IMG/VR virus record: IMGVR_UViG_3300045988_120991
Coordinates: 101,979 to 165,978 of that record
Length of the DNA stretch: 64,000 nt
Reading direction: 5' to 3' (one strand)
Origin: a virus
Below the pieces are notes generated by a model that searched no databases, was not told where the DNA came from, and saw only the letters and a program-made list of their open reading frames with translations. The position numbers and the translations under genes were made by a program. Within the stretch, counting starts at the first letter, position 1, and each line of letters opens with the position of its first letter. Positions 1,797-29,529 of this stretch are shown piece after piece.

Positions 1797-1798
1797 CT

Positions 1799-2636: not shown

Positions 2637-2693
2637 TAAGCGCCTTCAACTAATGAAGGTCAGAAATATAGAAAATCTGACTCATAGATAATA

Positions 2694-4012: not shown

Positions 4013-4021
4013 AGATCCTCC

Positions 4022-4444: not shown

Positions 4445-4446
4445 AG

Positions 4447-5022: not shown

Positions 5023-5024
5023 AT

Positions 5025-5321: not shown

Positions 5322-5335
5322 ATTTGTTCCTCCTT

Positions 5336-5378
5336 TAATTTTGTACTGTAATTATATCATATACTACTCATTTGTCAA
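5336..5378 (-). promoter_or_regulatory. sigma-70-type promoter plus conserved leader
   Basis: Minus strand reads TTGACA-N16-TATAAT-t-ACAGTACAAAATTAA-AGGAGG-ATG. Confidence 0.7.
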
Positions 5379-5391
5379 GTTGGCATATTGC

Positions 5392-5419
5392 ACAAAAGGT
5401 ACGGCAAAAATGCCGTACC
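5392..5419 (-). terminator. rho-independent terminator after the kinase-HD gene
   Basis: Minus strand reads GGTACGGCA-TTTTT-GCCGTACC followed by TTTTGTG. 9-bp GC-rich stem. Confidence 0.7.
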
Positions 5420-5426
5420 TAATTGG

Positions 5427-6302
5427 TTAATGTGCTGCAAGGTCTGCTTCGTGAAGCAAATCCACAGAATTTTTAAGATATGCTGGAAGATTTTTATAAC
5501 ACTTTTCATTTAGAAATGGTGCCATATGAGTGCTTACAAGCCAAGCAACATCTATTCTGATTTCATCTGCAACAAGACCATATATCATATATGCTCCAAC
5601 GCATTGATGCTGATAGAAGTGTGCAGTATCGCTCGGTTCACCTTTTGCATTAACGAATGCTTTGACATATGGTTTACCAACATCGTGAAATGATGCTGCA
5701 AGTGCCATAATGTTATCACACATATCGTTATTTACAATATACTTATATGCCGACTCACAATGATTGTAAATATCTAAAGTATGATGTGGGTTATCATGTA
5801 GAATTCGCATGGCCTCTGTAGAATCATCTATGTATTTTTGCATATCAAATCCATCTGGAAAAATGACTCTAATTTTATCAATGCCTTCATCATAATAAGG
5901 AGCTTGAAAACGCTTAAGCATTCTGTCAATAACTTCTTTACCAACAGTACGTTCTCTTGCGGCATCACGTTCAATGCAAGTTTCAATAGGTGCCCAAATA
6001 ATATGGCATTCAATTTGTGCAAACCTTGGGCACTTTGTAATGATGCTAGCTCTATCTTTTCTTGTGATATTTGTAGCATCATAGATGACATCAAAACCAT
6101 TATTCAATAACATAATTGCTCTATCCTGCATCAATGCAAATACATCTGAAGGATTTCCCTGTATATTTTCATCTCCATATAGTTCTTTTCTGATAGCATC
6201 AGAAGACAGATGATATGTATAGCTATTTTTCATTTTTTCTGCATAAGTGGTTTTCCCAGAACCAGGAATTCCACAAAGAAGTATTAGTACAGGTCTAGTC
6301 AT
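5427..6302 (-). CDS. bifunctional P-loop polynucleotide-kinase-like / HD phosphohydrolase protein
   Basis: N-terminal LLCGIPGSGKTTYA (Walker A) and DATNITRKDR. The C-terminal half has H..HD..H spacing (HHTLDIYNH, FHDVGKP, HFYQHQ, STHMAPF). Confidence 0.75.
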   Translation of the reverse strand: MTRPVLILLCGIPGSGKTTYAEKMKNSYTYHLSSDAIRKELYGDENIQGNPSDVFALMQDRAIMLLNNGFDVIYDATNITRKDRASIITKCPRFAQIECHIIWAPIETCIERDAARERTVGKEVIDRMLKRFQAPYYDEGIDKIRVIFPDGFDMQKYIDDSTEAMRILHDNPHHTLDIYNHCESAYKYIVNNDMCDNIMALAASFHDVGKPYVKAFVNAKGEPSDTAHFYQHQCVGAYMIYGLVADEIRIDVAWLVSTHMAPFLNEKCYKNLPAYLKNSVDLLHEADLAAH

Positions 6303-6549
6303 TCTTATTCTCCATTTCCATCATAAAGTTCTTTTTAAGAACATTCACAAGTACATCATTCATAACCTTCTCTGCAACTTTATTTATAATTGGTTTGTGA
6401 GTATCCATATACTTCTGCTTAACATCTTTTACAATTTCAACAATATTATCTGCAATTTCTACTGCTTCATCTTTGGAATAGATATACGAAGCCTTTACTT
6501 CAATTAAATCTTTAATTGCTCCAGCTACAGCTCCAACGTTATCTTTCAT
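6295..6549 (-). CDS. hypothetical protein
   Basis: Start moved to MKDNVGAVAG, with GAGGAGG upstream. Overlaps its neighbours by a few nt. Confidence 0.5.
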   Translation of the reverse strand: MKDNVGAVAGAIKDLIEVKASYIYSKDEAVEIADNIVEIVKDVKQKYMDTHKPIINKVAEKVMNDVLVNVLKKNFMMEMENKND

Positions 6550-6550
6550 A

Positions 6551-8029
6551 TTAATTCTCCTCCTCATTAATCTCTTCTTGTGCTTCTTCCATATCAGGAG
6601 TAGTTGCCTCAGCCTTTACTAGACCCTCAAGACACTTAAATGCAAAGTTCTTATGTTTATATGCGCAGAATTTAGGCTTATTCACAATACGAACTACTAC
6701 ACCCTCGCGTACATGAATCTTGCCAATAGGATCGGGGCCATCATAATATTGCTCTGCAATATTTTTAATCCATTCACCAGGGGTCCCTTCACGACAGACT
6801 CTCCAAGTGCCATGCTCGCCATAACAATCATAACCTTCTTCAAGACCCTCATCAGCGGGGATAAAACCTCTCCACAACATCGGGACACATTTACAACCCA
6901 TTTGCTCACAACGATAACGCATGAAGTCAGGAGAATACTCTACTACATCTCCGTCTTCATTTGTCATAGTCATACGATAAACATAAAAGTCAGACTGAGG
7001 AACTTCTCTTTCAGTGATACCAATACCTTCTTTGCCGTCTGGATTACAGCCATAAGAGAAAGTCGTAGTCTTACCATACTGCTTCACAAATTCCTTATCA
7101 TTGAGCTTCTTATTATCAGCGGTTGCCATAATAGGAGTGCTAGTATGGGTGAACCCAACTACCTCATAGTAGACCTCTTCACCCTTATGTAGTTTGCCCT
7201 CAAAGAACTTGGAGTGCTGTTCGCGGAACTCATTAGAGCCATAGTAGCCGCCATCAAAATTCTCAAGAACGGTACGACGAGTACCAGACACATAGCCCCA
7301 ATTATAAATAGGAGTTGCAGAAGAAAGTCCAAGATTCGCGAACTTCTGAGTTATAGCACCAACTTTATCACCAGACATTACCGCATCGAGAGCAGCTTGA
7401 TAGATACGGTTTGTACATCTGTAACCCTTAAATACAGGTAAATAGCCGGTGCGCTGAGAAGTACCATGCATCTTTAGAGTGATTTCAATCTGGTCTCCCG
7501 CCTGAAAAGCTCCAAGATTATAGGCTAGCTGTTCAGTATCAGCATGTTCAGTAAACAGAGGTGCGATAGGAACCTTCTTCTTACGAGTATGATTACCATT
7601 TGTAGCATGACCACTACGGGTATTTCTGCGAGGAATGTACTTAGCGCAAATCTCATGTCCATTGAATGTAGTAATAACATCTCCAACTTTTAGATTGGAT
7701 ACGTCACCAAAAGATTCTAAGCAAGCCAATGGTAGAAATAGACCATCTGACTTTTCACCACGAAGCCTAATAGAAGTTACATTGCGCTTGTCTGGGTCCA
7801 TATAACCGCCAATGTTATTACCATCTACATCCTTCTTACGAAGCAAATTATTAGTATCTGCAAACTCAACAGAAAGTTGACCATCCGTAGGGAAATATAC
7901 ACCAATCTGACCGTCTGTATATTCCATACTTACACAAACCGTATTGCCAAAACACTCACCAAGCTGTAATCTGTCTGCGTTAGGATGCTTACGCAGATTT
8001 TTAATTGTTGTTACATACGCATTATACAT
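6551..8029 (-). CDS. ATP-dependent RNA ligase with N-terminal tRNA-binding-type OB domain
   Basis: N-terminal KHPNADRLQLGE resembles the Trbp111/EMAP tRNA-binding OB fold. Nucleotidyltransferase motif I is LKMHGTS (compare KIHGTN of T4 Rnl2), motif IV is REGVVVRI and motif V is AYKHKNFAFK. Confidence 0.75.
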   Translation of the reverse strand: MYNAYVTTIKNLRKHPNADRLQLGECFGNTVCVSMEYTDGQIGVYFPTDGQLSVEFADTNNLLRKKDVDGNNIGGYMDPDKRNVTSIRLRGEKSDGLFLPLACLESFGDVSNLKVGDVITTFNGHEICAKYIPRRNTRSGHATNGNHTRKKKVPIAPLFTEHADTEQLAYNLGAFQAGDQIEITLKMHGTSQRTGYLPVFKGYRCTNRIYQAALDAVMSGDKVGAITQKFANLGLSSATPIYNWGYVSGTRRTVLENFDGGYYGSNEFREQHSKFFEGKLHKGEEVYYEVVGFTHTSTPIMATADNKKLNDKEFVKQYGKTTTFSYGCNPDGKEGIGITEREVPQSDFYVYRMTMTNEDGDVVEYSPDFMRYRCEQMGCKCVPMLWRGFIPADEGLEEGYDCYGEHGTWRVCREGTPGEWIKNIAEQYYDGPDPIGKIHVREGVVVRIVNKPKFCAYKHKNFAFKCLEGLVKAEATTPDMEEAQEEINEEEN

Positions 8030-8058
8030 TTTGTTCTCCTCTCATTAATTTTGTATCG

Positions 8059-8538
8059 TTAAGAAAAATATTGTATATCAAATTCATACCCTTGTGAATC
8101 AACAAAATAATTATTCACAAATTGATTAATGAACTTATAACTCTGCGGACTTCCTTGGATATGACTAATAGGATAATAATCTGGTATATTTTTATCATAT
8201 AATTGAGAATATTTATTTTGCTCAATCTTCTCTGGCTTCTTCGCCCCAACAACACCACCATTGTGCTTTAGTACTCTGTCGTCAAACGCATCCCAATTGT
8301 ACTCACAGCCATACTCATCATAAATACGGAATTCGCCCGTATCGTATGCGGCCTTATACTCTGCCACAGAACTAATTCCATCCTTGTGTGCTTGAAACAA
8401 AGGCAACCAGCCAACACTTGTCTTTGCAATATGAATTTTATAACCAAAGTGTGGCTCATCTGTAAGTTCATAAGAATATGGTGCATAGCGCTGTGCTTGT
8501 TCTTTATTCTTTGTAATCATATAAAAATTTGCGCCCAT
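8059..8538 (-). CDS. hypothetical protein
   Basis: ORF track, 159 aa, in the gene train. Confidence 0.6.
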   Translation of the reverse strand: MGANFYMITKNKEQAQRYAPYSYELTDEPHFGYKIHIAKTSVGWLPLFQAHKDGISSVAEYKAAYDTGEFRIYDEYGCEYNWDAFDDRVLKHNGGVVGAKKPEKIEQNKYSQLYDKNIPDYYPISHIQGSPQSYKFINQFVNNYFVDSQGYEFDIQYFS

Positions 8539-8541
8539 ATC

Positions 8542-8931
8542 TTAGCCCTCATAAAATCTGAATAGTTTACTTAGTGGCACCCCATTCGCCTTAGCAAGAC
8601 CCATAGCATAATCGCACACGTCATCATCGTCCGTCACACCAAGCTCATCACTCATGTAATCACTCAAGGTATCATAAGTATCATTATTGTTATTACTCCA
8701 GCCAATTAACATCTGCCCATTTACTGTAAAAATATCACAAGGTGAACCACCAGCACCATTTGAGAATTTACACCAAGCACCTTCGAGGACCGAGTTACTC
8801 AATGCTTTTGCATCTCTCTTGTCAACTTCAATTACTTTATACTTTTCACCAGAATACGTCTTATTGAAAGTAATGTCGTTGTCCTTTAGAATCTTCTCAA
8901 TATTGCCAGTCGTTAGCATTTCTACTTTCAT
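8542..8931 (-). CDS. hypothetical protein
   Basis: Start moved to MKVEMLTTGN, with AAGGAGG upstream. The longer track start would overlap the HD gene. Confidence 0.55.
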   Translation of the reverse strand: MKVEMLTTGNIEKILKDNDITFNKTYSGEKYKVIEVDKRDAKALSNSVLEGAWCKFSNGAGGSPCDIFTVNGQMLIGWSNNNNDTYDTLSDYMSDELGVTDDDDVCDYAMGLAKANGVPLSKLFRFYEG

Positions 8932-8941
8932 CTTGTCCTCC

Positions 8942-9718
8942 TTATAGTTCATCGTCTTCTTCTGCAAGCTTCTTCTTAATAGCTTTAATTGCAACTTGTA
9001 CATCTGGACGAGTAATGTTCTCCTCCATCCAGACCACATAATCGTCACCAGATTTGAATAGGTCAATCAGCTTCTCGCCCTTATGCTTACCAAATGTTAG
9101 CACATACTCTTCTGGCTTAGATTCTACTCTAGGAGTTTCAATGTTCTCAAAATCCATAGTAAGAGTTTTGCGAGATGCAAGGTAGTCTGCAAGATGTACT
9201 AGCTCTTGATATGTGTCTTCTGGTTTCGGCAAACATTCTCCGGTTTTTCTATCCACATTCCATTGGCCCATATGCGATTCAATACAATGAGCAATTAGTT
9301 CAATCTCATCGTGATTTAGATACTTGCCATCATAACTACGAATAACTGCTGCCATTTGTAGAGGGTGGTCGAATTTAGTATACTTACTTCTTTCATAATC
9401 TGATTGGGACCCACTCTTACGGCCATCATGAATCAGTCCTGCCACACGTAGCAAGTCTCTTTCTCTACTAGGAATTATTTTGTTGTATTGTTCAAGTTCA
9501 AGAAAGAAATTTAGGAATCTTACAACTGCAATCTGATGACACATCAATCCAAGTTCTCCAAGTGAATAGGCCGGATGGTACTTTCCAGTAGACGATGCTC
9601 CAACATGCCATATATATTCTGGAAGGTTGTCTAATAACACAATTGCAAAATCTTTAATATCATCATTTTCAAATGTATTTAGTACTGGTTGTACTATATT
9701 TAGTCTTTCAGGCGTCAT
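8942..9718 (-). CDS. HD-domain phosphohydrolase with C-terminal DUF3820-like tail
   Basis: 258 aa with KYHPAYS...CHQ...LIHDGRK...HCIESH (H..HD..H). The C-terminal FGKHKGEKLIDL...YVVWM motif is seen in phage/ExoX-like tails. Confidence 0.7.
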   Translation of the reverse strand: MTPERLNIVQPVLNTFENDDIKDFAIVLLDNLPEYIWHVGASSTGKYHPAYSLGELGLMCHQIAVVRFLNFFLELEQYNKIIPSRERDLLRVAGLIHDGRKSGSQSDYERSKYTKFDHPLQMAAVIRSYDGKYLNHDEIELIAHCIESHMGQWNVDRKTGECLPKPEDTYQELVHLADYLASRKTLTMDFENIETPRVESKPEEYVLTFGKHKGEKLIDLFKSGDDYVVWMEENITRPDVQVAIKAIKKKLAEEDDEL

Positions 9719-9719
9719 A

Positions 9720-9968
9720 TTAGTCCTCCGTAGTGTAATACTCTAGTTCATCAAACATATTCGATAGGGTGATGACAGCATCTCTGCTATGATTATGTAC
9801 CGCATTAGTTGGGTTTTCATCTTCATAGTTCTCTACAAACCACATGATATTACTTAGTACAGTCTTTGCAAAATCAATAACCTCTACCACATCGTCTGCC
9901 TGGACATTCATAATACCGTTTTCTGAAATGTTATTACACACATTGAATAGGTCATTAAAAGTCTTCAT
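9720..9968 (-). CDS. hypothetical protein
   Basis: ORF track, 82 aa. Confidence 0.5.
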   Translation of the reverse strand: MKTFNDLFNVCNNISENGIMNVQADDVVEVIDFAKTVLSNIMWFVENYEDENPTNAVHNHSRDAVITLSNMFDELEYYTTED

Positions 9969-11142: not shown

Positions 11143-12263
11143 GATGTTCTTAACCTTTCAATAAGTTTTTTTAGAATTTTAGCAATGTCAGAAATATCAT
11201 GCTGATTCAATGTTTCGTCCAATGTAATACGAATCGTGCTTAAAGCTTCTGCATCTGTAAGTCCAATAGCTTTTAACGTGCTACTTGGCACAGTCTCCCC
11301 ACTACTACAAGCAGAACCCGCAGAGATATAAATCCCACACATACTTGCTAGAGTCACAAGGTCACTAGCTTTTACTCCATCAATACGAACAGAAATATTA
11401 TTGCACAGACGATTAGTATCAAGTTCTGGACCATTTAGATGTACTCCAGGAATTTCAAGAATTTTCTTTGCAAGTTCATCCCTATTAAATCTAGTACAAA
11501 TGTTTGTATAGTCGTGTAACGTTCCTCTATTAATCTCTAGTGCTTTACCCATAGCTGCTATTGCAGGAGTATTTTCAGTTCCTCCTCGTTTGTGTAATTC
11601 TTGACTTCCATAAATAATCGGTGATAAATCAATTGTATCTTTGCAGTATAAAAATCCTGCACCTCTTCCACCTCTAAACTTCTGTGCTGAAATACTCATC
11701 ATATCTATTCTAAGCTTATCAACATCAATTCTTGATTCAGGGAAATATTGAACGGCATCCACATGTAATATACAATTATATTTATGCGTAATATATGAAA
11801 TAGATTTAATATCTTGGAGTGTTCCAATTTCAGAGTTTGCATACTGAATACTAACAATAGAATTATTATGTTCTTTTATTGTATCTTCTAAAATATTTGC
11901 ATCAATATTTCCAAATTCATCTACTGGAATATAATGTACATTAGTAAATTTATGATGATTTAAAATTTCACTAATAGATTTATGCTCTAATTGTGTCGTT
12001 ATAATAGTGTCAAAATTTGTTCCACAAAGTGCTAAAGTGTTTGCCTCTACTCCACCACTTGTGAAAATTATTTCTTTAGGTTCACAATTAATGTCTGCTG
12101 CAATTTGATCTCTTACATTTTCAATTATATTTTTAGCATCTTGCCCCATCTCATGAGTCGAAGATGGGTTGCCATAATGATTATACATTACATCGGCAAC
12201 CACATCTACAACTTCTTTGTATGGTTGAGTAGTAGATGCGCAATCTAAAAAGTATTTCTTCAT
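11139..12263 (-). CDS. cysteine desulfurase / class V aminotransferase (NifS/IscS-like)
   Basis: 374 aa. PLP-lysine context is SAQKFRGGRGAGFLY (compare SGHKxxGPKGxGxLY). C-terminal active-site loop is SAGSACSSG. Confidence 0.8.
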   Translation of the reverse strand: MKKYFLDCASTTQPYKEVVDVVADVMYNHYGNPSSTHEMGQDAKNIIENVRDQIAADINCEPKEIIFTSGGVEANTLALCGTNFDTIITTQLEHKSISEILNHHKFTNVHYIPVDEFGNIDANILEDTIKEHNNSIVSIQYANSEIGTLQDIKSISYITHKYNCILHVDAVQYFPESRIDVDKLRIDMMSISAQKFRGGRGAGFLYCKDTIDLSPIIYGSQELHKRGGTENTPAIAAMGKALEINRGTLHDYTNICTRFNRDELAKKILEIPGVHLNGPELDTNRLCNNISVRIDGVKASDLVTLASMCGIYISAGSACSSGETVPSSTLKAIGLTDAEALSTIRITLDETLNQHDISDIAKILKKLIERLRTS

Positions 12264-12266
12264 TGT

Positions 12267-12710
12267 CTACTCCTCAAATTCAATTTTCTCCTGGTGCCCA
12301 TTACGAACCTCTGTGTACAGATACTTACTAGCAGCATAATCATTGTGAAAGTGCGCCCACTTATAAGCATCAAACATTGAATCGAAATCTACATCGTATC
12401 CGTAATAAATTGTATAGAAAGATGTGTCGTCTCTATATCTTCCAATCATTACAAGTACATTATCCTCGTTCTGCAAAACGTTTCCAAGATACTTATGTGG
12501 GATTTCATAGATATTGTTAAGAACATCCTCCACAATATCATAATCTACTGTAGTAACATTCTTTGTGATAAGAACTGTATTATTGTTACATTTGCAAACT
12601 GCATGGTAATACTTTAACCCCTTTATCTTATTCTCTGTGAACTCAGCAGATACTACCTCAAGCATTGCCCCTGAAACATCATATAATGTGCTCATGTCTA
12701 ACCTCCTCAA
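12267..12710 (-). CDS. hypothetical protein
   Basis: ORF track, 147 aa, directly behind a consensus promoter. Confidence 0.6.
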   Translation of the reverse strand: MRRLDMSTLYDVSGAMLEVVSAEFTENKIKGLKYYHAVCKCNNNTVLITKNVTTVDYDIVEDVLNNIYEIPHKYLGNVLQNEDNVLVMIGRYRDDTSFYTIYYGYDVDFDSMFDAYKWAHFHNDYAASKYLYTEVRNGHQEKIEFEE

Positions 12711-14077: not shown

Positions 14078-14153
14078 TGGAGCACGTGACGAGGCTTGAA
14101 CTCGCAACAGCCAGATTGGAAATCTGGAACTCTACCAATTGAGCTACACGTGC
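14078..14153 (-). tRNA. tRNA-Gly(UCC)
   Basis: Hand-folded cloverleaf: GCACGTG/CACGTGC acceptor, loop TTTCCAA, T-loop TTCAAGC, CCA encoded. Confidence 0.85.
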
Positions 14154-14158
14154 ATTTG

Positions 14159-14235
14159 TGGTACACCTTGAAGGACTCAAACCTTCGACCTTCTGATCCG
14201 TAGTCAGACGTTCTATTCAACTGAACTAAAGGTGC
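14159..14235 (-). tRNA. tRNA-Arg(ACG)
   Basis: Cloverleaf with TCTGA-CTACGGA-TCAGA anticodon arm, T-loop TTTGAGT, CCA encoded. Confidence 0.85.
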
Positions 14236-14240
14236 ATATA

Positions 14241-14315
14241 TGGTGCCCGTGGAGAGATTCGAACTCTCGACTCACGGCTTAAAAGGCCGTTACTCTACCA
14301 CTGAGTTACACGAGC
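14241..14315 (-). tRNA. tRNA-Lys(UUU)
   Basis: ACGGC-CTTTTAA-GCCGT anticodon arm, GAGAG-TTCGAAT-CTCTC T arm, CCA encoded. Confidence 0.9.
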
Positions 14316-14318
14316 ATA

Positions 14319-14395
14319 TGGTCGGAGTGCAGGGGCTTGAACCCTGGGCCTCTAGATCCCAAATCTAGCGCTCTACCAAACTGAGCTACACCCCG
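14319..14395 (-). tRNA. tRNA-Pro(UGG)
   Basis: CTAGA-TTTGGGA-TCTAG anticodon arm, CAGGG-TTCAAGC-CCCTG T arm, CCA encoded. Confidence 0.9.
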
Positions 14396-14400
14396 AAATG

Positions 14401-14477
14401 TGGCACCCCGTGTTGGACTCAAACCAACGACACATGGCTTAGAAGGCCATTGCTCTGTTCAACTGAGCTAACGGGGC
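14401..14477 (-). tRNA. tRNA-Arg(UCU)
   Basis: ATGGC-CTTCTAA-GCCAT anticodon arm, GTTGG-TTTGAGT-CCAAC T arm, CCA encoded. Confidence 0.9.
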
Positions 14478-14482
14478 ATATA

Positions 14483-14577
14483 TGGCGCCGAGGGTGGGAT
14501 TCGAACCCACGGGCCGAATATAAATCGGCACACAAGATTTCAAGTCTAGGCGCTTATGACCACTTGCGCACCTCGGC
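14483..14577 (-). tRNA. tRNA-Ser(UGA), class II
   Basis: Loop CTTGAAA, long variable arm GCCGA...TCGGC, GTGGG-TTCGAAT-CCCAC T arm, CCA encoded. One mismatch in the anticodon stem. Confidence 0.8.
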
Positions 14578-14690
14578 ATATTAACTTTGTAATCCCAAAC
14601 TCCTCCACACAGATTACTGGGCACCCCTTACCTCGAATGCTAGTTAGTAGCAACAAACGTTTGTGCCGTTTCCACAAATAAAGATACACC

Positions 14691-14885
14691 TCACTGCGTA
14701 TTAACCTCTGTATATTCAGTACTAGATAAGGTAATCATTCTTTCGCATCCGTCCTGTGGACAAAAAATATTTGCAACCCCAAGATTATTTATTCCGTCAG
14801 ACGGATTAAATGCAAATTCACAACCACAATAAGGGCAGATTGCCTTATAGGTCTTAACTTTGCCTCCCTTGATAATATACTTCAT
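14691..14885 (-). CDS. small zinc-ribbon protein embedded in the tRNA array
   Basis: 64 aa with CPYCGC...CPQDGC. GAGGTG RBS. Confidence 0.5.
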   Translation of the reverse strand: MKYIIKGGKVKTYKAICPYCGCEFAFNPSDGINNLGVANIFCPQDGCERMITLSSTEYTEVNTQ

Positions 14886-14896
14886 AATAACACCTC

Positions 14897-15016
14897 TTAA
14901 TTAAACTTGTTCAACTGCCGCTTAACTTTACGGATAAGGCCCTCGTTCATAGTCTCGCCTCGTGCCAAAAGCTTTGCTAGACGATTTTCATAATGTTCCT
15001 TAGTGCGAAAGTTCAT
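14897..15016 (-). CDS. small basic helical protein (39 aa) embedded in the tRNA array
   Basis: Hand-translated MNFRTKEHYENRLAKLLARGETMNEGLIRKVKRQLNKFN. Strong AGGAGG upstream. Confidence 0.35.
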   Translation of the reverse strand: MNFRTKEHYENRLAKLLARGETMNEGLIRKVKRQLNKFN

Positions 15017-15042
15017 AATATGTACCTCCTAAAATTTTTGTA

Positions 15043-15165
15043 TGGCAGGGGTAGTAGGGTTCGAACCTACGATGCGGGAGTCTGGTCAAGGTAGTTGGTA
15101 CTGCCCCAACTAAATTCACTTGAATACCTTGAAAGTCCCGTGCCTTACCACTTGGCTATACCCCT
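15043..15165 (-). tRNA. tRNA-Gln-like gene interrupted by a 49-nt insertion in the anticodon loop (UUG if CTTT+GAC are joined; UUC is the alternative)
   Basis: AGGGGTA/TACCCCT acceptor, GCC-AAGTGGTAA-GGC D arm, CGGGA...TCCCG anticodon stem enclosing 56 nt, GTAGG-TTCGAAC-CCTAC T arm, G73, CCA. Insertion at 15083-15131. Confidence 0.65.
15094..15110 (-). repeat. conserved insertion hairpin, copy 1 (GTTGG-GGCAGTA-CCAAC)
   Basis: The same 5-bp stem and 7-nt GGCAGNA loop recur in the insertions at 16662-16678 and 17532-17548. Confidence 0.7.
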
Positions 15166-15168
15166 ATA

Positions 15169-15243
15169 TGGTGGATCTGACGTGACTCGAACACGCAACT
15201 TCTTCCTTGCAAGGGAAGCTTTCTCCCATTGAAATACAGACCC
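15169..15243 (-). tRNA. tRNA-Cys(GCA)
   Basis: CTTCC-CTTGCAA-GGAAG anticodon arm, GCGTG-TTCGAGT-CACGT T arm, CCA encoded. Confidence 0.85.
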
Positions 15244-15405
15244 AGATTTTATGAGATAGCTACACTATGTATACCTAATGTAGCTATTAGGTTTTCTAAC
15301 TCCTCACCTCAAACCATTTTTATCTGTCTCTCCTCTTAGCCAATCAGATTTGAGTGACTTGAACGGACCGCCGTCCTCACATTGATAAAATAGTAAAATC
15401 AACAA
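15244..15405 (-). other. 162-nt non-coding spacer with strong hairpin inside the tRNA array
   Basis: Minus strand contains ATAGCTACA-N14-TGTAGCTAT (9-bp stem) and GGTTT...AAACC. I found no tRNA fold and no ORF. Confidence 0.3.
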
Positions 15406-15496
15406 TGGCGCGATAGGAAGGCTTCGAACCTTCGCACGGCTTTCACCGCCTAGCAGATTAGCAATCTACCCTCTTCAACCACTTGAGTACTACCGC
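15406..15496 (-). tRNA. tRNA-Ser(GCU), class II
   Basis: GTAGA-TTGCTAA-TCTGC anticodon arm, long variable arm GGCGGTGAAAGCCGT, CCA encoded. Confidence 0.85.
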
Positions 15497-15499
15497 ATA

Positions 15500-15703
15500 T
15501 TAATCTAATGTTCTTCCAGTTGCTAATTCAAAAATTAAATTATCAACACAGGGAATGTGCATTGCCTCTATCTCATATTGAGTACGATGTTCAATGTCAT
15601 TAATATAGATAGGACAATCTTTACATTCTACATTTTCACAAAAACGAACAGCTTTTTCTACTATTTTAGAATTCGCAAATTTTATATATTCTTCCCAACG
15701 CAT
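15500..15703 (-). CDS. small Cys-containing protein embedded in the tRNA array
   Basis: Start moved to MRWEEYIKF, with GGAGG 5 nt upstream. 67 aa. Confidence 0.5.
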   Translation of the reverse strand: MRWEEYIKFANSKIVEKAVRFCENVECKDCPIYINDIEHRTQYEIEAMHIPCVDNLIFELATGRTLD

Positions 15704-15723
15704 AAAATCCTCCATAAAACGAG

Positions 15724-15752
15724 CAGTTTATACAGTGATACTCAGCACTATC
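15724..15752 (-). repeat. 29-nt direct repeat, copy A (contains hairpin ATAGTG-N8-CACTGT)
   Basis: 25 of 29 nt identical to 16117-16145. Both copies sit just downstream (minus sense) of a tRNA 3' end. Confidence 0.6.
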
Positions 15753-15775
15753 CCACGGTCCCAATCGAGCTTTTC

Positions 15776-15850
15776 TGGAGCTGATGGAGAATTTCGAAAT
15801 CTCGACCTAGTGATTACAAATCACTCGCTCTGCCTCTGAGCTACACCAGC
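15776..15850 (-). tRNA. tRNA-Thr(UGU)
   Basis: AGTGA-TTTGTAA-TCACT anticodon arm, CCA encoded. One T-stem mismatch. Confidence 0.8.
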
Positions 15851-15956
15851 AGATCTCCTCGTCTTTCCGAGGTGTCAATCGCACTTTTACATTAATAATC
15901 TTAAATTATTCTTTAATAGGAAGATGACGCCAATCTTGTGTGATTACCTTTTATGT

Positions 15957-16025
15957 GAGGTCTTAATTGGAATCGAACCAACACCTGCCCCACCACGGGG
16001 CCGATCTACCATTGAACTATAAGAC
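15957..16025 (-). tRNA. atypical tRNA-like gene with a shortened (15-nt) anticodon arm; identity undetermined
   Basis: GGTCTTA/TAAGACC acceptor and GTTGG-TTCGATT-CCAAT T arm. The anticodon region is GCCCC-GTGGT-GGGGC (5-nt loop, or 4-bp stem with loop CGTGGTG). No CCA encoded. Confidence 0.4.
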
Positions 16026-16027
16026 CT

Positions 16028-16105
16028 ATGGTGACGCTACCGGGGATCGAACCCGGACACTCCACGGTGAAAGCGTGGTAACTCTACCAATTCGTCCATA
16101 GCGCC
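16028..16105 (-). tRNA. tRNA-Glu(UUC)
   Basis: CCACG-CTTTCAC-CGTGG anticodon arm, CCGGG-TTCGATC-CCCGG T arm, CCA encoded. Confidence 0.8.
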
Positions 16106-16116
16106 ATATCTTTGGA

Positions 16117-16145
16117 CAGTTTATACAGTGATGTCCAGCACTGTC
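16117..16145 (-). repeat. 29-nt direct repeat, copy B (hairpin ACAGTG-N8-CACTGT)
   Basis: See 15724-15752. Confidence 0.6.
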
Positions 16146-16156
16146 ACTTTTGGGAG

Positions 16157-16241
16157 TGGTAGCGGTGGTGGGCTACGATCCCACACGTCATAAGACATTG
16201 GTTTTTGAGACCAACCTGTCTGCCTGTTCCAGCACACCGCC
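16157..16241 (-). tRNA. tRNA-Leu(CAA), class II, atypical T-loop
   Basis: TTGGT-CTCAAAA-ACCAA anticodon arm, long variable arm. The T arm is GTGGG-ATCGTAG-CCCAC, with A where T54 normally sits. CCA encoded. Confidence 0.75.
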
Positions 16242-16448
16242 ATATTAAGCACAACCTACATAGAGCTAGCCTCGCTCACACTTGCTTTCCCGAACACTTC
16301 CCACCCTCGGTTATGCTTTGTTATTGTTTATCCTATTTTCACAATAACATATGCCTCGTTCTCTTCTCGTTACTATGGGTTAGTAACTTAGTAGCTTTTC
16401 TCTTGTGGATAGCACTTATCAATACACCGAGAACCCCAATAGGCGGCA
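16242..16448 (-). ncRNA. 207-nt structured non-coding spacer (candidate ncRNA)
   Basis: No credible ORF. Minus strand contains CTCGGT...ACCGAG enclosing about 110 nt, GTTACTA-ACCCA-TAGTAAC and GTTATTGT-N13-ACAATAAC hairpins. Confidence 0.3.
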
Positions 16449-16524
16449 TGGTTGCGAAGTTCTGGAATCGAACCAGATTCTGATAGCTTATGAGACTACC
16501 TGAGATTCCTACCTCCCACTCGCA
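16449..16524 (-). tRNA. tRNA with CAU anticodon (Met, or Ile2 if lysidine-modified)
   Basis: GTAGT-CTCATAA-GCTAT anticodon arm, TCTGG-TTCGATT-CCAGA T arm, CCA encoded. The acceptor has one mismatch. Confidence 0.7.
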
Positions 16525-16608
16525 TTATCTAGCAGACTACAATGCCGTCTGCTAGGGCATTAGAAAGAGGTGATGCCTATAACCAAGGCTCTGAACTTGT
16601 CATTCAGA

Positions 16609-16758
16609 TGGTCCCCCACCGGTGGATTGAACACCGAACCTCCCGATTATTTGTCACTACAGTAAGTCCTGCCCTTACATTACTGATTATCCTTCAGTGG
16701 TGTTGCTTTTACACTATGTAGTGAAGTCGGGTGCTCTAGCCAGTTGAGCTAGCAGGGG
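16609..16758 (-). tRNA. class I tRNA interrupted by an approx. 73-nt insertion in the anticodon loop (Ile-UAU-like if CTT+ATAA are joined; Arg-UCU or UCA readings also possible)
   Basis: CCCCTGC/GTGGGGG acceptor, GCTC-AACTGGCTA-GAGC D arm, CCCGA...TCGGG stem enclosing 80 nt, AGGTT variable loop, CGGTG-TTCAATC-CACCG T arm, A73, CCA. Confidence 0.6.
16662..16678 (-). repeat. conserved insertion hairpin, copy 2 (GTAAG-GGCAGGA-CTTAC)
   Basis: Shares stem ends and the GGCAGNA loop with copies 1 and 3. Confidence 0.7.
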
Positions 16759-17056
16759 ACATATAATCCGGCTTTTACGGTACGCCCAATAAGATGGACA
16801 CGCTTGAATTTCACAATTGCCATCAAAGTGCCTGATGACTAACACCCAATATGAAGCCTTGATATCATTGCTTCTAAGTCGTTATTGGGAACAACAGATG
16901 GTAATGATAGCAAGCGAAGCCGCGCATGACTCCATTTCACAGTGCTTCATCAACTACTTTTGGCATTTCTAATTATTATCGGTGCAGGTAGCTAATCCTG
17001 TAACGGCTTATCCTCATTGATTATCTCCTATGAAATTTGCACTACTTACTATCATT
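16759..17056 (-). ncRNA. 298-nt non-coding spacer (candidate structured RNA)
   Basis: No ORF above about 22 codons and no tRNA fold found by eye. Several 5-6-bp hairpins (e.g. CATCA-N7-TGATG). Confidence 0.25.
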
Positions 17057-17141
17057 TGGTGGGCCAGGGTGGTGCCGACCCACCTACTCCCGAAGGAAAC
17101 GGATTTACAGTCCGCCGCAGTTGCCGATTTGCTACTGACCC
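17057..17141 (-). tRNA. tRNA-Tyr(GUA), class II, atypical T-loop
   Basis: GCGGA-CTGTAAA-TCCGT anticodon arm, variable arm TTCCTTCGGGAGTA. The T arm is GGTGG-GTCGGCA-CCACC (G54/G58). CCA encoded. Confidence 0.75.
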
Positions 17142-17468: not shown

Positions 17469-17601
17469 TGGTGCGGGTAGCGAGACTTGAACTCGCACGG
17501 ATATTTCACCGAGGGATTTTTGGTGAGTATTGTAGGTGCTGCCCCTACCAAAGCACTGGCTATACCCAAGTCCCTTGTGTCTGCCATTCCACCATACCCG
17601 C
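17469..17601 (-). tRNA. tRNA-Leu (class II) interrupted by a 47-nt insertion in the anticodon loop (UAA if CTT+AAAA are joined)
   Basis: GCGGGTA/TACCCGC acceptor, Leu-type D arm GTG-GAATGGCAGA-CAC, AGGGA...TCCCT stem enclosing 54 nt, long variable arm, GCGAG-TTCAAGT-CTCGC T arm, A73, CCA. Confidence 0.65.
17532..17548 (-). repeat. conserved insertion hairpin, copy 3 (GTAGG-GGCAGCA-CCTAC)
   Basis: Shares stem ends and the GGCAGNA loop with copies 1 and 2. Confidence 0.7.
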
Positions 17602-17649: not shown

Positions 17650-19203
17650 TTAAGAGTTCTTCAATGCGGCTTCCACCGCATCATATCTATCACTCATAAG
17701 CGTCTCAACGAGGCACTCATAAGGATTGGTCTTACCACTCATAACCATCTTGCAGACATTAGTGGAGAATCCACTAACAAGAGCAACACCAAGGTCATTC
17801 TCCTTTATAGGAATAGTTCCAGTGCGAGAATTTACATTCCAGAAGACTAGTCTAGGCATCTGATACCCAGCATCCTCGAAACGCTTCTTGATTACCTTAA
17901 AAAGTTTTGCATTAGGTCTATTAAGACCATATCTAGCGGAACCGTCACAAGTTGCACAAGAGTCAAACTCCATATCTGAAATAATCAGTACGTTCTTAGG
18001 CATATCCTCTTGCTTCATATGACCATTCACCGCAGTAGTAAGAATCAAATCAAACACCTTTTCAATGTTTGTATTTGAACACTCGTCATGACCATATGCA
18101 ACACGTAACTTATCTCTCAGAGAATCGCACTGACTAAAATCAACCAACTGAGGTCTGCTAGAGAAAGTAATGTATTTATCCTTAAAGTCTCCAGAAGAAT
18201 GTTCTGCAAAGTAAATCGCAAGTGCATTTGCAACTTCAAGTGCAGTAACACGGCTACTTCCACCAACGTTGCAACACATAGAACCAGAGCCATCTGCAAC
18301 TACAATGGTGTTTCCACATTCATTTACTGTGTTAGGCAAAGCTTTCCAAAGAGATTCAAGAGTTGCATCGTATTTGCCGATACCGCCGTACCATCCAGTT
18401 GCACTAGAATACTTATGCACAATGTCGTGAGGGAACAAAGTTCCAGCATTAATCTTAGTTTCGCCCTTTTCAAGCTTACTCAGATACTCTCTGCGACGCT
18501 CCTCATCATTACGAAGGAAAGCTCCGTTATAAATGAGATTTGCACGAGAAGGAACTGTTTCGTACTTAATGTCTCCCCATTTCTTTGCAGACATCTTGCC
18601 CTCTACAATATCAATGTAAGAACGCAGAGAAGAAAGTGTCTTACGATACTCACGCTCAGTCATACCAAGATTCTTGCAAATGTATCTTGCATCCATCTTA
18701 GTTTTTGCAGAAGAAGCATTCACAGAAGGAAGCCACTTGGCAAGAAGAGATACGGGCTTATTATCAGCCATATTTGCAATATCATCAGTGAGCTGCTTTT
18801 TGATGATGTCAAAAATAATACCATCTACGTCTGTACCAAACAGACACCACAGGTCATCATAACGACCATACTCACTCACCAGAGGAGCAAGATGCTTAAC
18901 AATATCAACGTCATCCTTTGCCATATTCTTAATAATCGCTCTGAACAAACGTCTTTCACCAAGACCACCACGAACATCTCTGGCGAAGAACAGCCAACGT
19001 AGAGCCATCATTTTATCTTCAAAATAAGCCTTAGTAAACTTATTATAGATATTCTCCTCACTCATACCACGCATAGAAGAAACTGCAAAGTTTAGGTCAA
19101 CCAGTTCCTTACCAGAGGTACGATACCCAAGAGCGCCATTCTCAGTTACTGAATAGTTGAAATCCTCGTTCAGAGTATTCTTTACTGCATTCATAAAAGA
19201 CAT
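17650..19203 (-). CDS. Ro60/TROVE-like vWA protein (DUF2828-type architecture)
   Basis: Start moved to MSFMNAVKN, with GGAGG upstream. N-terminal VTENGALGYRTSGKELVDLNF. C-terminal vWA domain with MIDAS VADGSGSM, and a tail FWNVNSRTGTIPI...VSGFS that parallels the Ro60 C-terminus. Confidence 0.65.
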   Translation of the reverse strand: MSFMNAVKNTLNEDFNYSVTENGALGYRTSGKELVDLNFAVSSMRGMSEENIYNKFTKAYFEDKMMALRWLFFARDVRGGLGERRLFRAIIKNMAKDDVDIVKHLAPLVSEYGRYDDLWCLFGTDVDGIIFDIIKKQLTDDIANMADNKPVSLLAKWLPSVNASSAKTKMDARYICKNLGMTEREYRKTLSSLRSYIDIVEGKMSAKKWGDIKYETVPSRANLIYNGAFLRNDEERRREYLSKLEKGETKINAGTLFPHDIVHKYSSATGWYGGIGKYDATLESLWKALPNTVNECGNTIVVADGSGSMCCNVGGSSRVTALEVANALAIYFAEHSSGDFKDKYITFSSRPQLVDFSQCDSLRDKLRVAYGHDECSNTNIEKVFDLILTTAVNGHMKQEDMPKNVLIISDMEFDSCATCDGSARYGLNRPNAKLFKVIKKRFEDAGYQMPRLVFWNVNSRTGTIPIKENDLGVALVSGFSTNVCKMVMSGKTNPYECLVETLMSDRYDAVEAALKNS

Positions 19204-19239
19204 TTTCTTTCCTCCATTTTTTTGATTTATTTCTAAATC

Positions 19240-19442
19240 CCAAGACACATTATTATGTACAATCTCCACATTAAAAATTTGCTGTTAGTGTCTTTGGAGT
19301 TTATTCAACGAGACGCCAAAATAAAACCATTAGTAAAAATATCATTTTCATCTTTTTAAATTGCTGTAAGCGTCTCTATGTAAGGCAAGGCACCATCAAT
19401 ATAAATCCATATCATATTATGTAAAGTTGCTGTTAGTGCCTT
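19240..19442 (-). repeat. three tandem imperfect hairpin units, each carrying a CTAACAGCAA-N-TTT box, in the leader of the Ro-like gene
   Basis: Minus-strand stems are AAGGCAC/GTGCCTT, GAGACGC/GCGTCTC and CCAAAGACAC/GTGTCTTGG. Each is followed on its 5' arm by (C)T(A/T)ACAGCAA-N-TTT. A fourth box lies inside the tRNA-Asn insertion. Confidence 0.6.
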
Positions 19443-19448
19443 TTTAAA

Positions 19449-19567
19449 GTCTCCTGACAGGACTTGAACCTGCGACCTCTGGTTTAACAGACCAATTAGA
19501 AACTTGCTGTTTAAGGCTTTTACAAGTCTCGTTATTAAGCGCTCTATCCGACTGAGCTACAGGAGAC
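19449..19567 (-). tRNA. tRNA-Asn(GUU)-like gene with a 44-nt insertion at the top of the anticodon stem; encoded G-1 opposite C73; no CCA
   Basis: Removing 19495-19538 gives TCTCCTG-TA-GCTC-AGTCGGATA-GAGC-G-CTGGT-CTGTTAA-ACCAG-AGGTC-GCAGG-TTCAAGT-CCTGT-CAGGAGA-C, a canonical cloverleaf. Confidence 0.6.
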
Positions 19568-28239: not shown

Positions 28240-29529
28240 TTATTCTGTTTTCCACCTAAATACAAACCCTTTTGTTTTTTCTTGTACACCATGACAGCAT
28301 TCTAAAATTCTTGTTTTACTTGCATTCGTATTTTTTACGGCATCCGCAACATTTTTATATTCTGCTATAAAATTTCCATCTAAATCATACTGTAATACTG
28401 GAAGTCTAACTGGGCTTTTATGATAATTTGTAGATTTAATTTTATCTAAATCATAATCTCCGTCGGCATATTTCCATACAAATCCACCAGCCATAGAGCC
28501 ATCTTTAGCTAAACATCTCGATATGGTAGAATTGTTAATTCCAGTTATCCTTGATGCCTCAACAATACTTTCATAAGTTGCAATAATATTTCCATTTGTG
28601 TCTATTTGCACAACTTCTTTATATACTGGATTTTTATATACATATGTTTTTGACGGGTCATATTCTTCTTTGTATATCCAGATATATTCGCCAGCGTGGT
28701 TATAATTGCCTTTGCAGCACATAGTTATACTTGAATCATAAATATTTGTGTTTATACTTGCGTCTTTTATAGTACTATATTCTGCTATAAAATTACCCAA
28801 TTTATCCAATTGTACAACCGGCCTTAATGTATTATTATCATATGTTATATCATTATGAGGATCATAATCTTTTTTATAAACCCAAAGAAACTTTCCGCCA
28901 GATTTAGAATGTAATTTACCAAGGCAGCACTTGTTAATAGTTGTTTCATCAACACCAGTTATTTCACTGGCTTCTCTACCACTTTTAAATTCTGCTATAT
29001 ATTTTCCATCTAAGCCTAATTGAATAACTGGTACACTTTGTATTTTGCTTATAACATTTTTTGTTTCATCCGAATGATGTTTACCATAAAATGGGTTACA
29101 TTCTCCAGAAAATTTCTTGCTCCACTTTTCTTTTAACTCGTCTGTCCATCTATTTCTTTGAGCTTCACTCATTTTGTTTTTAGTATCATCAGATACTATT
29201 AATCCACTTACTCCGCCTCCACCATAACAAAGATTGTACCAATTTTTATCTTCTACAACATTAAGAAAAACACTTAAATCATATTCAGATTTATTTAATT
29301 CTTCTAATGAATCACAAAAACATATAATATTTCTAGAAAAATTTTCTTTGCCATATTTTCTTACTGCACTTTTAAATGCACTACCGCTTCCTAAATAATT
29401 CTTCCATTTATAATTATCATCAAAAGATTTTTGTCCAAGGTATCTTTTGCCGTTAACCATATTTGTAGTAATATATATAAATCCATATGGTTCTTTAATT
29501 ATTTTTTTTACTTCTTCCACAACTCTCAA
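28240..29529 (-). CDS. GIY-YIG homing endonuclease with four tandem NUMOD/IENR-like DNA-binding repeats
   Basis: N-terminal GFIYITTNMVNGKRYLGQ (GIY...YxG). Repeated units of the form xVxQxDxxGNxIAxYxSxxEAxxxTG....I..C......GGFxWxY. Non-ATG (TTG/GTG) start. Confidence 0.8.
   Translation of the reverse strand: MRVVEEVKKIIKEPYGFIYITTNMVNGKRYLGQKSFDDNYKWKNYLGSGSAFKSAVRKYGKENFSRNIICFCDSLEELNKSEYDLSVFLNVVEDKNWYNLCYGGGGVSGLIVSDDTKNKMSEAQRNRWTDELKEKWSKKFSGECNPFYGKHHSDETKNVISKIQSVPVIQLGLDGKYIAEFKSGREASEITGVDETTINKCCLGKLHSKSGGKFLWVYKKDYDPHNDITYDNNTLRPVVQLDKLGNFIAEYSTIKDASINTNIYDSSITMCCKGNYNHAGEYIWIYKEEYDPSKTYVYKNPVYKEVVQIDTNGNIIATYESIVEASRITGINNSTISRCLAKDGSMAGGFVWKYADGDYDLDKIKSTNYHKSPVRLPVLQYDLDGNFIAEYKNVADAVKNTNASKTRILECCHGVQEKTKGFVFRWKTE

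Follow-up and report, generated by a model that had tools for sequence, protein, structure and literature searches.

How can a tRNA be made from a gene whose anticodon is split by 47 nucleotides (nt), and what kind of element is the segment in between? The question is raised by a tRNA-Leu(UAA) gene in 64,000 nt of phage DNA, positions 101,979 to 165,978 of IMG/VR virus record IMGVR_UViG_3300045988_120991; this whole stretch is called the window here. Bacterial tRNA introns are thought, to our knowledge, to be only self-splicing group I introns or, rarely, group II introns, and protein-dependent tRNA splicing is regarded as an archaeal or eukaryotic trait. The phage insert was found to have the shape of a small tRNA with a 3' end of its own, and comparison of its alleles and relatives makes it quite likely to be a spliced, tRNA-derived intron.

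Boundaries of the interrupted gene

The gene and its parts are as follows.

17601..17469, minus strand: interrupted class II tRNA-Leu(UAA) gene, 133 nt, or 86 nt without the insert
17601..17568, minus strand: exon 1, 34 nt, with the acceptor 5' strand, D arm, 5' strand of the anticodon stem and C32-U33-U34, as read from the sequence and from insert-free alleles
17567..17521, minus strand: insert, 47 nt, between U34 and A35; GGGTATAGCCAGTGCTTTGGTAGGGGCAGCACCTACAATACTCACCA
17520..17469, minus strand: exon 2, 52 nt, with A35-A38, 3' strand of the anticodon stem, long variable arm, T arm, acceptor 3' strand, A73 and CCA

The 5' half reads GCGGGTA-TG-GTG-GAATGGCAGA-CAC-A-AGGGA-CTT on the minus strand and is followed by the 47 nt, after which the 3' half reads AAAA-TCCCT-CGGTGAAATATCCG-T-GCGAG-TTCAAGT-CTCGC-TACCCGC-A-CCA. 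The class II leucine body proposed in the initial annotation, with its GCGGGTA acceptor, GTG-CAC D arm, long variable arm, A73 and CCA, is present in every part, both in the sequence and by the Rfam tRNA model RF00005, which gives the interrupted gene 42.5 bits (gathering score 29) and leaves a gap of about 50 nt in the anticodon loop. ARAGORN detects the gene in intron mode only. The AGGGA/TCCCT stem encloses 3 + 47 + 4 nt, the same 54 nt that had been counted before.

The boundaries were fixed, without recourse to any model, by comparison with 65 related loci (L001-L065), collected via the neighbouring DUF2828/DUF7788 protein. An uninterrupted 86-nt tRNA-Leu(UAA) gene occupies the same slot in L005 and L007 (11612-11697) and in L002 (11669-11754); its sequence is that of the two joined exons of insert-bearing alleles, and its loop reads CTTAAAA. 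Because the exons of these insert-free alleles are identical, the insert is exactly 47 nt, 17567..17521, and lies at U34/A35. Five A's follow ACC, and therefore the insert ends in ACCA and exon 2 begins with AAAA. The earlier proposals that CTT and AAAA together restore the anticodon UAA, and that the insertion falls between U34 and A35, are thereby proven at the level of the gene. Neither the five A's nor the insert-free alleles allow an anticodon CAA, obtained by dividing the loop as CT|...|CAAAA. ARAGORN's call of Pro/UGG conflicts with the class II leucine body and with the same alleles, and is an artefact of a forced 37/38-type intron. Among GenBank phages, no BLAST match to the interrupted gene was found.

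Fold of the insert

Within the 47 nt, the following elements were recognized.

17562..17567, minus strand: acceptor-like closing stem, 5' strand GGGTAT; at the seventh position A7 faces A37 in a mismatch
17552..17561, minus strand: D-like mini hairpin AGC-CAGT-GCT, whose stem covaries
17532..17548, minus strand: T-arm-like hairpin GTAGG-GGCAGCA-CCTAC, a 5-bp stem and a 7-nt loop, adjoining the closing stem's 3' strand
17525..17530, minus strand: acceptor-like closing stem, 3' strand ATACTC, which shows covariation
17521..17524, minus strand: discriminator A and CCA, directly touching exon 2

Written as RNA, the insert reads GGGUAU-A-GC-CAGU-GC-UUUG-GUAGG-GGCAGCA-CCUAC-A-AUACUC-ACCA. As in a tRNA, there is a seven-position acceptor stem, next to which comes a T stem of 5 bp closed by 7 nt, and the 3' end is a discriminator with CCA; an anticodon arm is missing, and the T-like loop GGCAGCA is non-canonical. 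The minimum-free-energy (MFE) fold of the isolated 47-mer consists of the closing stem and the two hairpins, and neither ARAGORN nor Rfam calls the 47-mer alone as a tRNA. When the sequence was shuffled, only 7 of 2,000,000 shuffled 47-mers had at least six of seven closing pairs, an abutting hairpin of 5 bp and 7 nt and a CCA end, which gives a probability of about 3.5e-6. The shape of the insert is not a chance feature.

Covariation among relatives points the same way. A covariance model was built from five gapless Leu inserts and was then used to guide the alignment, in place of a MAFFT alignment of 11 inserts in which the 5' halves were misaligned. The model matches the window's Leu insert with 78.3 bits at exactly 17521-17567 and the window's Gln insert at 15083-15131 with 35.6 bits, and all of its full-length matches in 1.45 Mb of related phage DNA sit in tRNA anticodon loops. 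In the alignment, which was fitted to this model so that its figures are to be read with that in mind, 96.3% of the cells are paired, as against 76.9% in shuffles (0 of 500 reach 96.3%), and 10 of 13 inner pairs, including all six pairs of the closing stem, have compensatory changes. Sliding the 3' partners lowers the pairing to 34-46% of the cells. The closing stem appears in relatives as GCTGAT/ATCAGT, GTTCGAG/CTTGAGC or GCTTGAT/ATCAAGT, and the D-like stem as GC/GC, GG/CC or TTC/GAA around a loop conserved as (C/A)A(G/A)N. The T-arm-like hairpin is paired in 100% of the cells, with compensatory changes in three of its five pairs. Furthermore, all 10 short inserts at U34/A35 of tRNA-Leu(UAA), chosen by their exon context alone, were found to have the acceptor-like stem, the abutting 5/5 hairpin and an NCCA or ACAA tail; within the Leu inserts the tail is invariant except in L017. 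A tertiary pair between the hairpin loops (G of CAGU with C of GGC) was considered and dropped as too weak, with one compensatory change (L017) against one mismatch (L003).

Rfam scans, including permissive ones of the region and of the whole window, returned only tRNA, and no intron or ribozyme family for the insert. The T-like loop GGCAGYA is also the T loop of stand-alone phage tRNAs; the 47-mer is therefore best seen, on comparison of the sequences, as a tRNA that has kept only its acceptor stem, T arm and CCA, with a vestige of the D hairpin.

The stand-alone tRNAs and tRNA-like genes with the non-canonical loop GGCAGUA, in place of TΨCRA, occur in L076 (~3300-3400), L104 (~12290-12380), L115, L117 and L147. 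These are unrelated viral contigs, the anticodon loops of the tRNAs carry UUG, UAU or CAU, and some have aberrant D regions.

A family of inserts grading into nested tRNAs

The Leu insert is one member of a larger family. A structure-based scan, which demanded a stem and CCA at the junction, yielded 47 instances with 29 unique inserts of 47-93 nt, all in anticodon loops, and the spliced products were checked with ARAGORN. The hosts are tRNA-Leu(UAA), tRNA-Gln(UUG), tRNA-Ile(UAU), tRNA-Lys(UUU) and tRNA-Thr(UGU), five U34 tRNAs of related gut phages. Positions 32/33, 34/35, 35/36 or 36/37 of the loop are occupied across the family. Whatever the position, the ends of the insert are always those of the inner element itself, +1 on one side and CCA (CAA in three types) on the other, a rule that was established independently for the Leu set. 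Base +1 is G in 21 and C in 8 of the 29 unique inserts, the discriminator is A in 20, G in 6 and U in 3, and the tail is NCCA in 26 and NCAA in 3. The base at -1 is U in 29/29, and one further case lies after C32 (L020). A separate scan of IMG/VR with the 17-mer GTAGGGGCAGYACCTAC returned at least 119 loci, mostly by chance, of which 14 had the right context after filtering; new Leu inserts were obtained from it in L066, L135 and L182.

Two sister inserts lie in the window itself.

15131..15083, minus strand: insert of 49 nt with the same architecture, loop GGCAGTA and tail ACCA, after U35 of tRNA-Gln(UUG) 15165..15043
16723..16651, minus strand: insert of 73 nt, T loop GGCAGGA and tail ACAA, after U34 of tRNA-Ile(UAU) 16758..16609

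The MFE fold of the Ile insert is a perfect cloverleaf. In related phages the nested element is called as a tRNA by ARAGORN: a tRNA-Asn(GUU) lies within tRNA-Lys(UUU) in L016-L018 and L020, and an amber-suppressor tRNA(CUA) within tRNA-Ile(UAU) in L005 and L006. Judged from these sequences, the family grades from mini-inserts into genuine nested tRNAs. If so, tRNA genes can nest, and the nested ones include suppressor tRNAs relevant to stop-codon recoding. ARAGORN assigned the Leu gene to Pro, the Gln gene to Glu and the Ile gene to Arg. Interrupted genes are missed or mis-assigned by standard tRNA finders, and phage tRNA repertoires are therefore under-counted.

Among 21 long open reading frames (ORFs) of the window, 0 end in TAG, 15 in TAA and 6 in TGA. 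Taken with the CUA suppressor tRNAs of relatives, these counts are a possible hint of TAG reassignment in some part of the genome.

A second class of tRNA inserts, unrelated to the first and referred to as class B, was also observed, with 112 instances, 75 of them unique, of about 25-100 nt. It sits in the 5' strand of the anticodon stem, at position 28/29 in the window's tRNA-Asn GUU (19448-19567, minus strand; insert ~19494-19537), and recurs at ~8300-9900 in the related loci L001-L065. In class B inserts an A/U-rich beginning is followed by a hairpin, by CAGCAA with hardly any variation and by a stretch rich in U at the end, and Rfam gives no match. The tRNAs that carry it are mostly without an encoded CCA and are clustered immediately upstream of the DUF2828/phrog_850 gene.

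Selection on the outer tRNA

Whether the outer tRNA is restored at all was judged from its exons. Presence of the insert varies between phages in which the neighbouring DUF2828 protein has 92-98% identity to that of the window. The spliced exons of nine insert-bearing alleles, 74-94% identical to the window exons, fold as a class II cloverleaf, and once the insert is removed in silico, compensatory changes are found in 17 of 25 pairs of this outer cloverleaf and almost no pair is broken. ARAGORN scans in default and intron mode found no second tRNA-Leu(UAA) in the window. Exon covariation and the position of the gene as the window's sole tRNA-Leu(UAA) lead to the judgment that the outer tRNA gene is kept functional.

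An opposite view would be that the outer tRNA is not restored, either since the gene is inactivated or since it is a scaffold that releases the CCA-ended 47-nt minihelix as its product, the halves being discarded; the minihelix might then serve as a decoy for tRNA-targeting defence nucleases, as a ligand of the phrog_850 protein or as a regulator. The strong structural selection on the inner element would suit this view, as would the adjoining gene for an RNA-binding protein, the better conservation of the insert than of the exons in some comparisons (94% against 77% between the window and L013) and the coexistence of insert-free and insert-bearing alleles, by which both states appear to be tolerated. 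The exons of the nine divergent alleles nevertheless keep every cloverleaf stem through compensation and are therefore not what a long-inactivated gene would show; the interrupted gene is the only one of its kind in the window, the same phages place genuine tRNAs inside other genuine tRNAs, and a ligase suited to anticodon-loop nicks is encoded. Loss of the outer tRNA thus appears quite improbable.

Comparison with known introns and processing signals

The insert shares its site with the group I intron (Rfam RF00028) of tRNA-Leu(UAA) known from cyanobacteria and plastids: host gene, position U34/A35 with the junction CTT|AAAA, a 5' exon ending in U, and alleles with and without an intron are alike. 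It differs in everything else, with 47 nt as against at least ~200 nt, no P3-P9 core, a tRNA-like fold, and an end in ...ACCA where a group I intron has its terminal omega G. In other phages (L003, L088, L162 and L094), the same U34/A35 site of tRNA-Leu(UAA) holds inserts of 205-926 nt that all end in G and have the common 3' motif …GGCTATRGTRAYATAGAGTRGNAAG; from these features the long inserts are probably classical group I introns. The long insert of L003 (11609-12457; ORF 11709-12254) encodes an HNH endonuclease, and Rfam gave no match for the 762-nt intron of L003. The 47-nt insert has no sequence similarity to this group I-type intron.

These data bear on the possibility that the insert splices or cleaves itself, whether as a small ribozyme or as a group I derivative in miniature. 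The classic group I site after a U, the group I-type introns at that very site in related phages, and the tRNA-associated HDV-like theta ribozymes carried by gut phages (PMC10879173) would be compatible with it. On the other side stand the length of 47 nt without terminal G or P3-P9 core, the permissive Rfam scans that match no intron or ribozyme family, the lack of sequence in common with the L003 intron, the fact that a single small ribozyme cuts once and not twice, and the tRNA-like fold. Since the insert is without a catalytic core, tRNA-like and ACCA-ended, self-splicing is not plausible and is considered scarcely credible here. The remark in the initial annotation that 47 nt is too small for a classic group I intron is upheld by the missing Rfam intron match and terminal G; that reading of the locus is supported as a whole, and the tRNA shape with its ACCA end, the family and the ligase and healing enzymes go beyond it.

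Introns of archaea and eukaryotes are marked by the bulge-helix-bulge (BHB) motif, in which two 3-nt bulges that carry the splice sites lie a 4-bp helix apart. In the phage precursor CUU (3 nt) directly faces ACCAAAAA (8 nt), without an offset 4-bp helix, and the internal loop so formed lies between the anticodon stem and the 6-bp closing stem. No splicing endonuclease domain of EndA/Sen type was found in the 56 window ORFs scanned against Pfam, a set that does not extend to many of the small ORFs, to the remainder of the genome or to the host. The likeness to BHB introns, which are processed by EndA/Sen and by RtcB or Trl1, is that of a short intron in the anticodon region needing protein enzymes and an RNA ligase, and the kinase, phosphoesterase and ligase set of the phage resembles the heal-and-seal chemistry of Trl1 and T4. 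The differences are the missing BHB, the site at 34/35 (32/33 to 36/37 across the family) instead of 37/38, and the bacterial virus as carrier.

A closer resemblance is seen to tRNA-like signals such as MALAT1 mascRNA, the t-elements of plant mitochondria and mitochondrial tRNA punctuation, in which an embedded tRNA-shaped module marks cleavage by its own ends and a minimal acceptor/T-stem is kept. Here, unlike in those cases, the module lies inside the anticodon loop of another tRNA and the flanks need religation; we know of no tRNA punctuation system that includes ligation. A miniature inverted-repeat transposable element does not fit, in that the flanks CTT and AAAA are not duplicated and the terminal repeats differ between copies. 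The repeats covary instead of being conserved, which points to selection on the RNA and not on the DNA. The repair of PrrC breaks by Pnkp and Rnl1 of phage T4 is similar in that a phage kinase/phosphatase and a ligase act on a tRNA broken in the anticodon loop by U34, whereas the T4 break is host damage and the break here would be a programmed maturation step; the T4 ligase is Rnl1 and that of the window is of the DRB0094/Rnl5 type.

Full-text literature searches (including PMC7162821) gave no description of tRNA-shaped introns besides the Lak phage preprint (10.1101/356790) considered below. By comparison of sequence and fold, the insert fits neither the group I nor the BHB nor any other described intron family and is judged to represent an essentially undescribed class.

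Proposed removal by tRNA end-processing and ligation

The preferred reading is that the insert is removed by RNase P and by an endonuclease cutting after CCA, and that the exons are sealed by the phage ligase. A probability of roughly 0.45 is given to this route. The genes relevant to it lie in the window at the following positions.

6551..8029, minus strand: RNA ligase of the DRB0094/Rnl5 (NgrRnl, DraRnl) type, candidate exon-sealing enzyme
5427..6302, minus strand: Pnkp-type 5'-OH polynucleotide kinase fused to an HD phosphohydrolase, candidate end-healing enzyme
2088-2636, minus strand: metallophosphoesterase of the same repair-gene cluster
963-1796, minus strand: Thg1-like 3'-5' polymerase of the cluster
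2911-3849, minus strand: possible radical SAM protein of the cluster
8942-9718, minus strand: further HD protein of the cluster

The ligase matches phrog_968 'RNA ligase' with E = 4e-62 and TIGR02306 with E = 1e-13, the latter below its cut-off, and has weak matches to Pfam RNA_ligase, to the OB-fold of PHA02142 and to the Naegleria RNA ligase in PDB 5cot (E = 0.002). The kinase matches Pfam AAA_33 and HD, phrog_505 polynucleotide kinase, PDB 4xrp Pnkp1 (E = 2e-7) and TIGR04075. Genes for RNA repair and tRNA maturation were thus observed as a cluster over 963-9718 of the minus strand.

By the proposed route, RNase P would see the inner minihelix and cut at the 5' end of the insert, leaving exon 1 with a 3'-OH at U34. 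A tRNA 3'-end endonuclease would cut after the inner A76 of the CCA and leave exon 2 with a 5'-phosphate. The second cutter could be an RNase Z/BN-type activity in after-CCA mode or another nuclease, and an RNase Z-type cut would fall after CCA or after the discriminator, depending on how the phage encodes its tRNAs. The tRNA halves would be held together by the pairing of the outer cloverleaf, and the 3'-OH/5'-P nick in the anticodon loop would be sealed by the DRB0094/Rnl5-type ligase. Should the cuts leave a cyclic phosphate and a 5'-OH, the Pnkp-type kinase-HD protein would heal the ends first. The freed 47-nt minihelix would be a by-product or have a function of its own.

Several observations are consistent with this route. 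The fold retains the parts of a tRNA that are read by end-processing enzymes, namely the acceptor/T-like stack, the D-like hairpin, the discriminator and CCA, and it has the shape of an RNase P and RNase Z substrate mimic, with 7 + 5 stacked positions without spacer, the tail ACCA and U at -1. Minihelices of acceptor and T stem are substrates of bacterial RNase P, which reads 3' RCCA and U(-1); tRNA-like elements such as mascRNA and plant mitochondrial t-elements serve as processing signals for RNase P and RNase Z. RNase Z of T. maritima and RNase BN of E. coli cut after CCA, and T4 Rnl1 seals nicks in the anticodon loop. In addition, some inserts are real nested tRNAs and must therefore be released by tRNA-processing enzymes.

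The Lak megaphages, in which 'enigmatic' tRNA introns were reported (Devoto et al., 10.1101/356790), offer a second system for comparison. No structure family, boundary rule or mechanism was proposed in that report. Lak-C1 (L240, MK250029.1) has an intact tRNA-Thr(UGU) with the loop CTTGTAA and an empty site, and Lak-A1 (L239, MK250015.1 492137-492591) has a 116-nt insert after U36 of the same tRNA, made of a 31-nt leader and a tRNA-like element without CCA, whose last base is its discriminator and touches exon 2. The Lak tRNA-Thr gene has no encoded CCA either. A junction directly after the discriminator is the canonical site of RNase Z. The two systems share a short anticodon-loop insert with tRNA-like content and alleles with and without it in sister genomes; they differ in the length of 116 nt, the 31-nt leader, the missing CCA and the phage lineage. 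In both, the 3' junction tracks the 3' processing site of the nested element: with an encoded CCA it follows CCA, and without one it follows the discriminator.

A general link of the DRB0094 ligase to unusual phage tRNA maturation follows from its 140-fold enrichment in gut phages with tRNA-associated theta ribozymes (Kienbeck et al., PMC10879173). A seed-based search for ligase genes recovered only 5 of the 65 family contigs, too few to judge how often ligase and inserts go together.

A number of points weigh against the proposed route. We infer splicing itself from conservation. The weakest link is the second cut: we know of no enzyme that cuts precisely after CCA in the phage's host, CCA normally blocks RNase Z, and exonucleolytic trimming cannot yield exon 2. 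Recognition of the elbow by RNase P is uncertain, since the T-like loop GGCAGCA is without the U54/A58 signature, and the Lak-A1 leader parts exon 1 from the tRNA-like element by 31 nt, so that RNase P alone cannot set that 5' splice site. Three insert types end in CAA instead of CCA, and outside the Leu set the boundary rule was partly imposed by the demands of the family scan. The MFE fold of the 133-nt precursor misses the nested cloverleaf (-37.9 vs -45.4 kcal/mol), a result that may also be counted neither way. The healing enzymes (kinase, HD protein and metallophosphoesterase) suggest that these phages handle cyclic-phosphate/5'-OH ends; cuts by RNase P and RNase Z leave other ends. Finally, class B needs another endonuclease, which might also process the tRNA-shaped inserts.

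The last points lead to a different proposal, in which a dedicated endonuclease of phage or host makes both cuts and leaves 2',3'-cyclic phosphate and 5'-OH ends, the Pnkp-type kinase/HD protein heals them and the ligase seals, as yeast Trl1 does; the tRNA-like shape would then be a recognition handle for the nuclease or would serve the freed RNA. This proposal is kept alive by the CAA-tailed variants, the non-canonical T-like loop, the Lak-A1 leader, which lies beyond the reach of RNase P, and the enzymes for healing cyclic-phosphate ends. The complete heal-and-seal gene set lies no more than about 17 kb from the tRNA array, and class B inserts, not being tRNA-like, require another nuclease anyway. 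It is regarded as unlikely, given that no splicing-endonuclease domain was seen in the 56 scanned ORFs, that BHB geometry is missing, and that it leaves unexplained why reduction of the insert kept exactly the acceptor/T-stack and NCCA. Some inserts, moreover, are genuine tRNAs, which RNase P must process regardless, and the repair genes have an established other role in countering host anticodon nucleases.

If removal by end-processing and ligation is correct, the inserts form a new intron class, whose boundaries are set by the inner element's own tRNA ends, and they provide a programmed substrate for the widespread and poorly explained RNA ligases and Pnkp-type enzymes of phages. The 'enigmatic' Lak introns would be explained as well, and the 47-nt element would be a compact natural, self-delimiting processing cassette for RNA engineering.

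Persistence and origin of the insert

Why such an insert is kept may be asked apart from how it is removed. Within the preferred reading it probably persists as a selfish or protective element, and the conserved DNA site that it disrupts is also used by homing endonucleases and group I introns. One proposal, compatible with any splicing mechanism, is that it is a mobile or selfish DNA element that destroys the target of homing endonucleases or group I introns in anticodon-loop DNA. Two free-standing endonuclease genes of the window bear on it.

28240-29529, minus strand: free-standing GIY-YIG SegE-like homing endonuclease with NUMOD domains
35228-35845, minus strand: free-standing HNH_3/AP2 homing endonuclease

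Besides these genes, the presence/absence polymorphism among phages with closely similar DUF2828 proteins and the HNH-carrying group I-type intron at the identical U34/A35 site in L003 speak for the proposal. So does the incongruence of insert and exon similarities, as the window and L013 are 94% identical in the insert and 77% in the exons, and the window and L024 62% in the insert and 84% in the exons. The inserted segment, furthermore, corresponds exactly to a mature tRNA from +1 to CCA, placed after U in anticodon loops, where many anticodon nucleases cut. The insert may have originated when the repair ligase placed a tRNA between the two pieces of a tRNA cleaved in its anticodon, with later copying of the ligated RNA into DNA. 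The insert, however, carries and is linked to no endonuclease or reverse transcriptase here, no target-site duplication is seen, the covarying terminal repeats point to selection at the RNA level, and the capture scenario is purely our own reconstruction. A selfish or site-masking role would be plausible, as would an origin in which the ligase captured a tRNA within a cleaved anticodon loop; as an account of the insert, the mobile or selfish element is nonetheless held to be somewhat doubtful.

Removal by end-processing may be combined with these ideas into one scheme: a third, mechanistically distinct route of tRNA splicing ('tRNA-in-tRNA'), with introns that are tRNAs or stripped-down tRNA minihelices, with RNase P, an RNase Z-type cut and rejoining by the DRB0094/Rnl5 ligase, in which the inserts would have been born by ligase capture of free tRNAs into loops cut by host anticodon nucleases and would now spread or be kept by masking homing sites. 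The whole of this scheme is put forward tentatively.

Genome context

The phage genome is about 150-170 kb in size with 37% G+C. A PolIII-alpha polymerase, DnaB, primase, RecJ, serine hydroxymethyltransferase (SHMT), a PurA-like enzyme and homing endonucleases are encoded in the window. A human faecal phage is the nearest relative in GenBank, its polymerase being 45% identical in amino acids. A near-identical insert lies on a contig of 147 kb that was assigned to the bin of an uncultured Prevotella genome; as to the host, this gives no more than a hint. The tRNA array occupies 14078-17141 of the minus strand; in addition, over-long tRNAs number three by the Rfam tRNA model and four by ARAGORN in intron mode. 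A protein gene adjoins the interrupted tRNA-Leu gene.

17650-19269, minus strand: DUF2828/DUF7788 protein, 539 aa, matching phrog_850 'RNA-binding protein' with E = 1e-139

This protein has no sequence match in PDB, and a guess that it is Ro60-like was not confirmed. Its gene adjoins tRNA arrays in 65/65 related loci.

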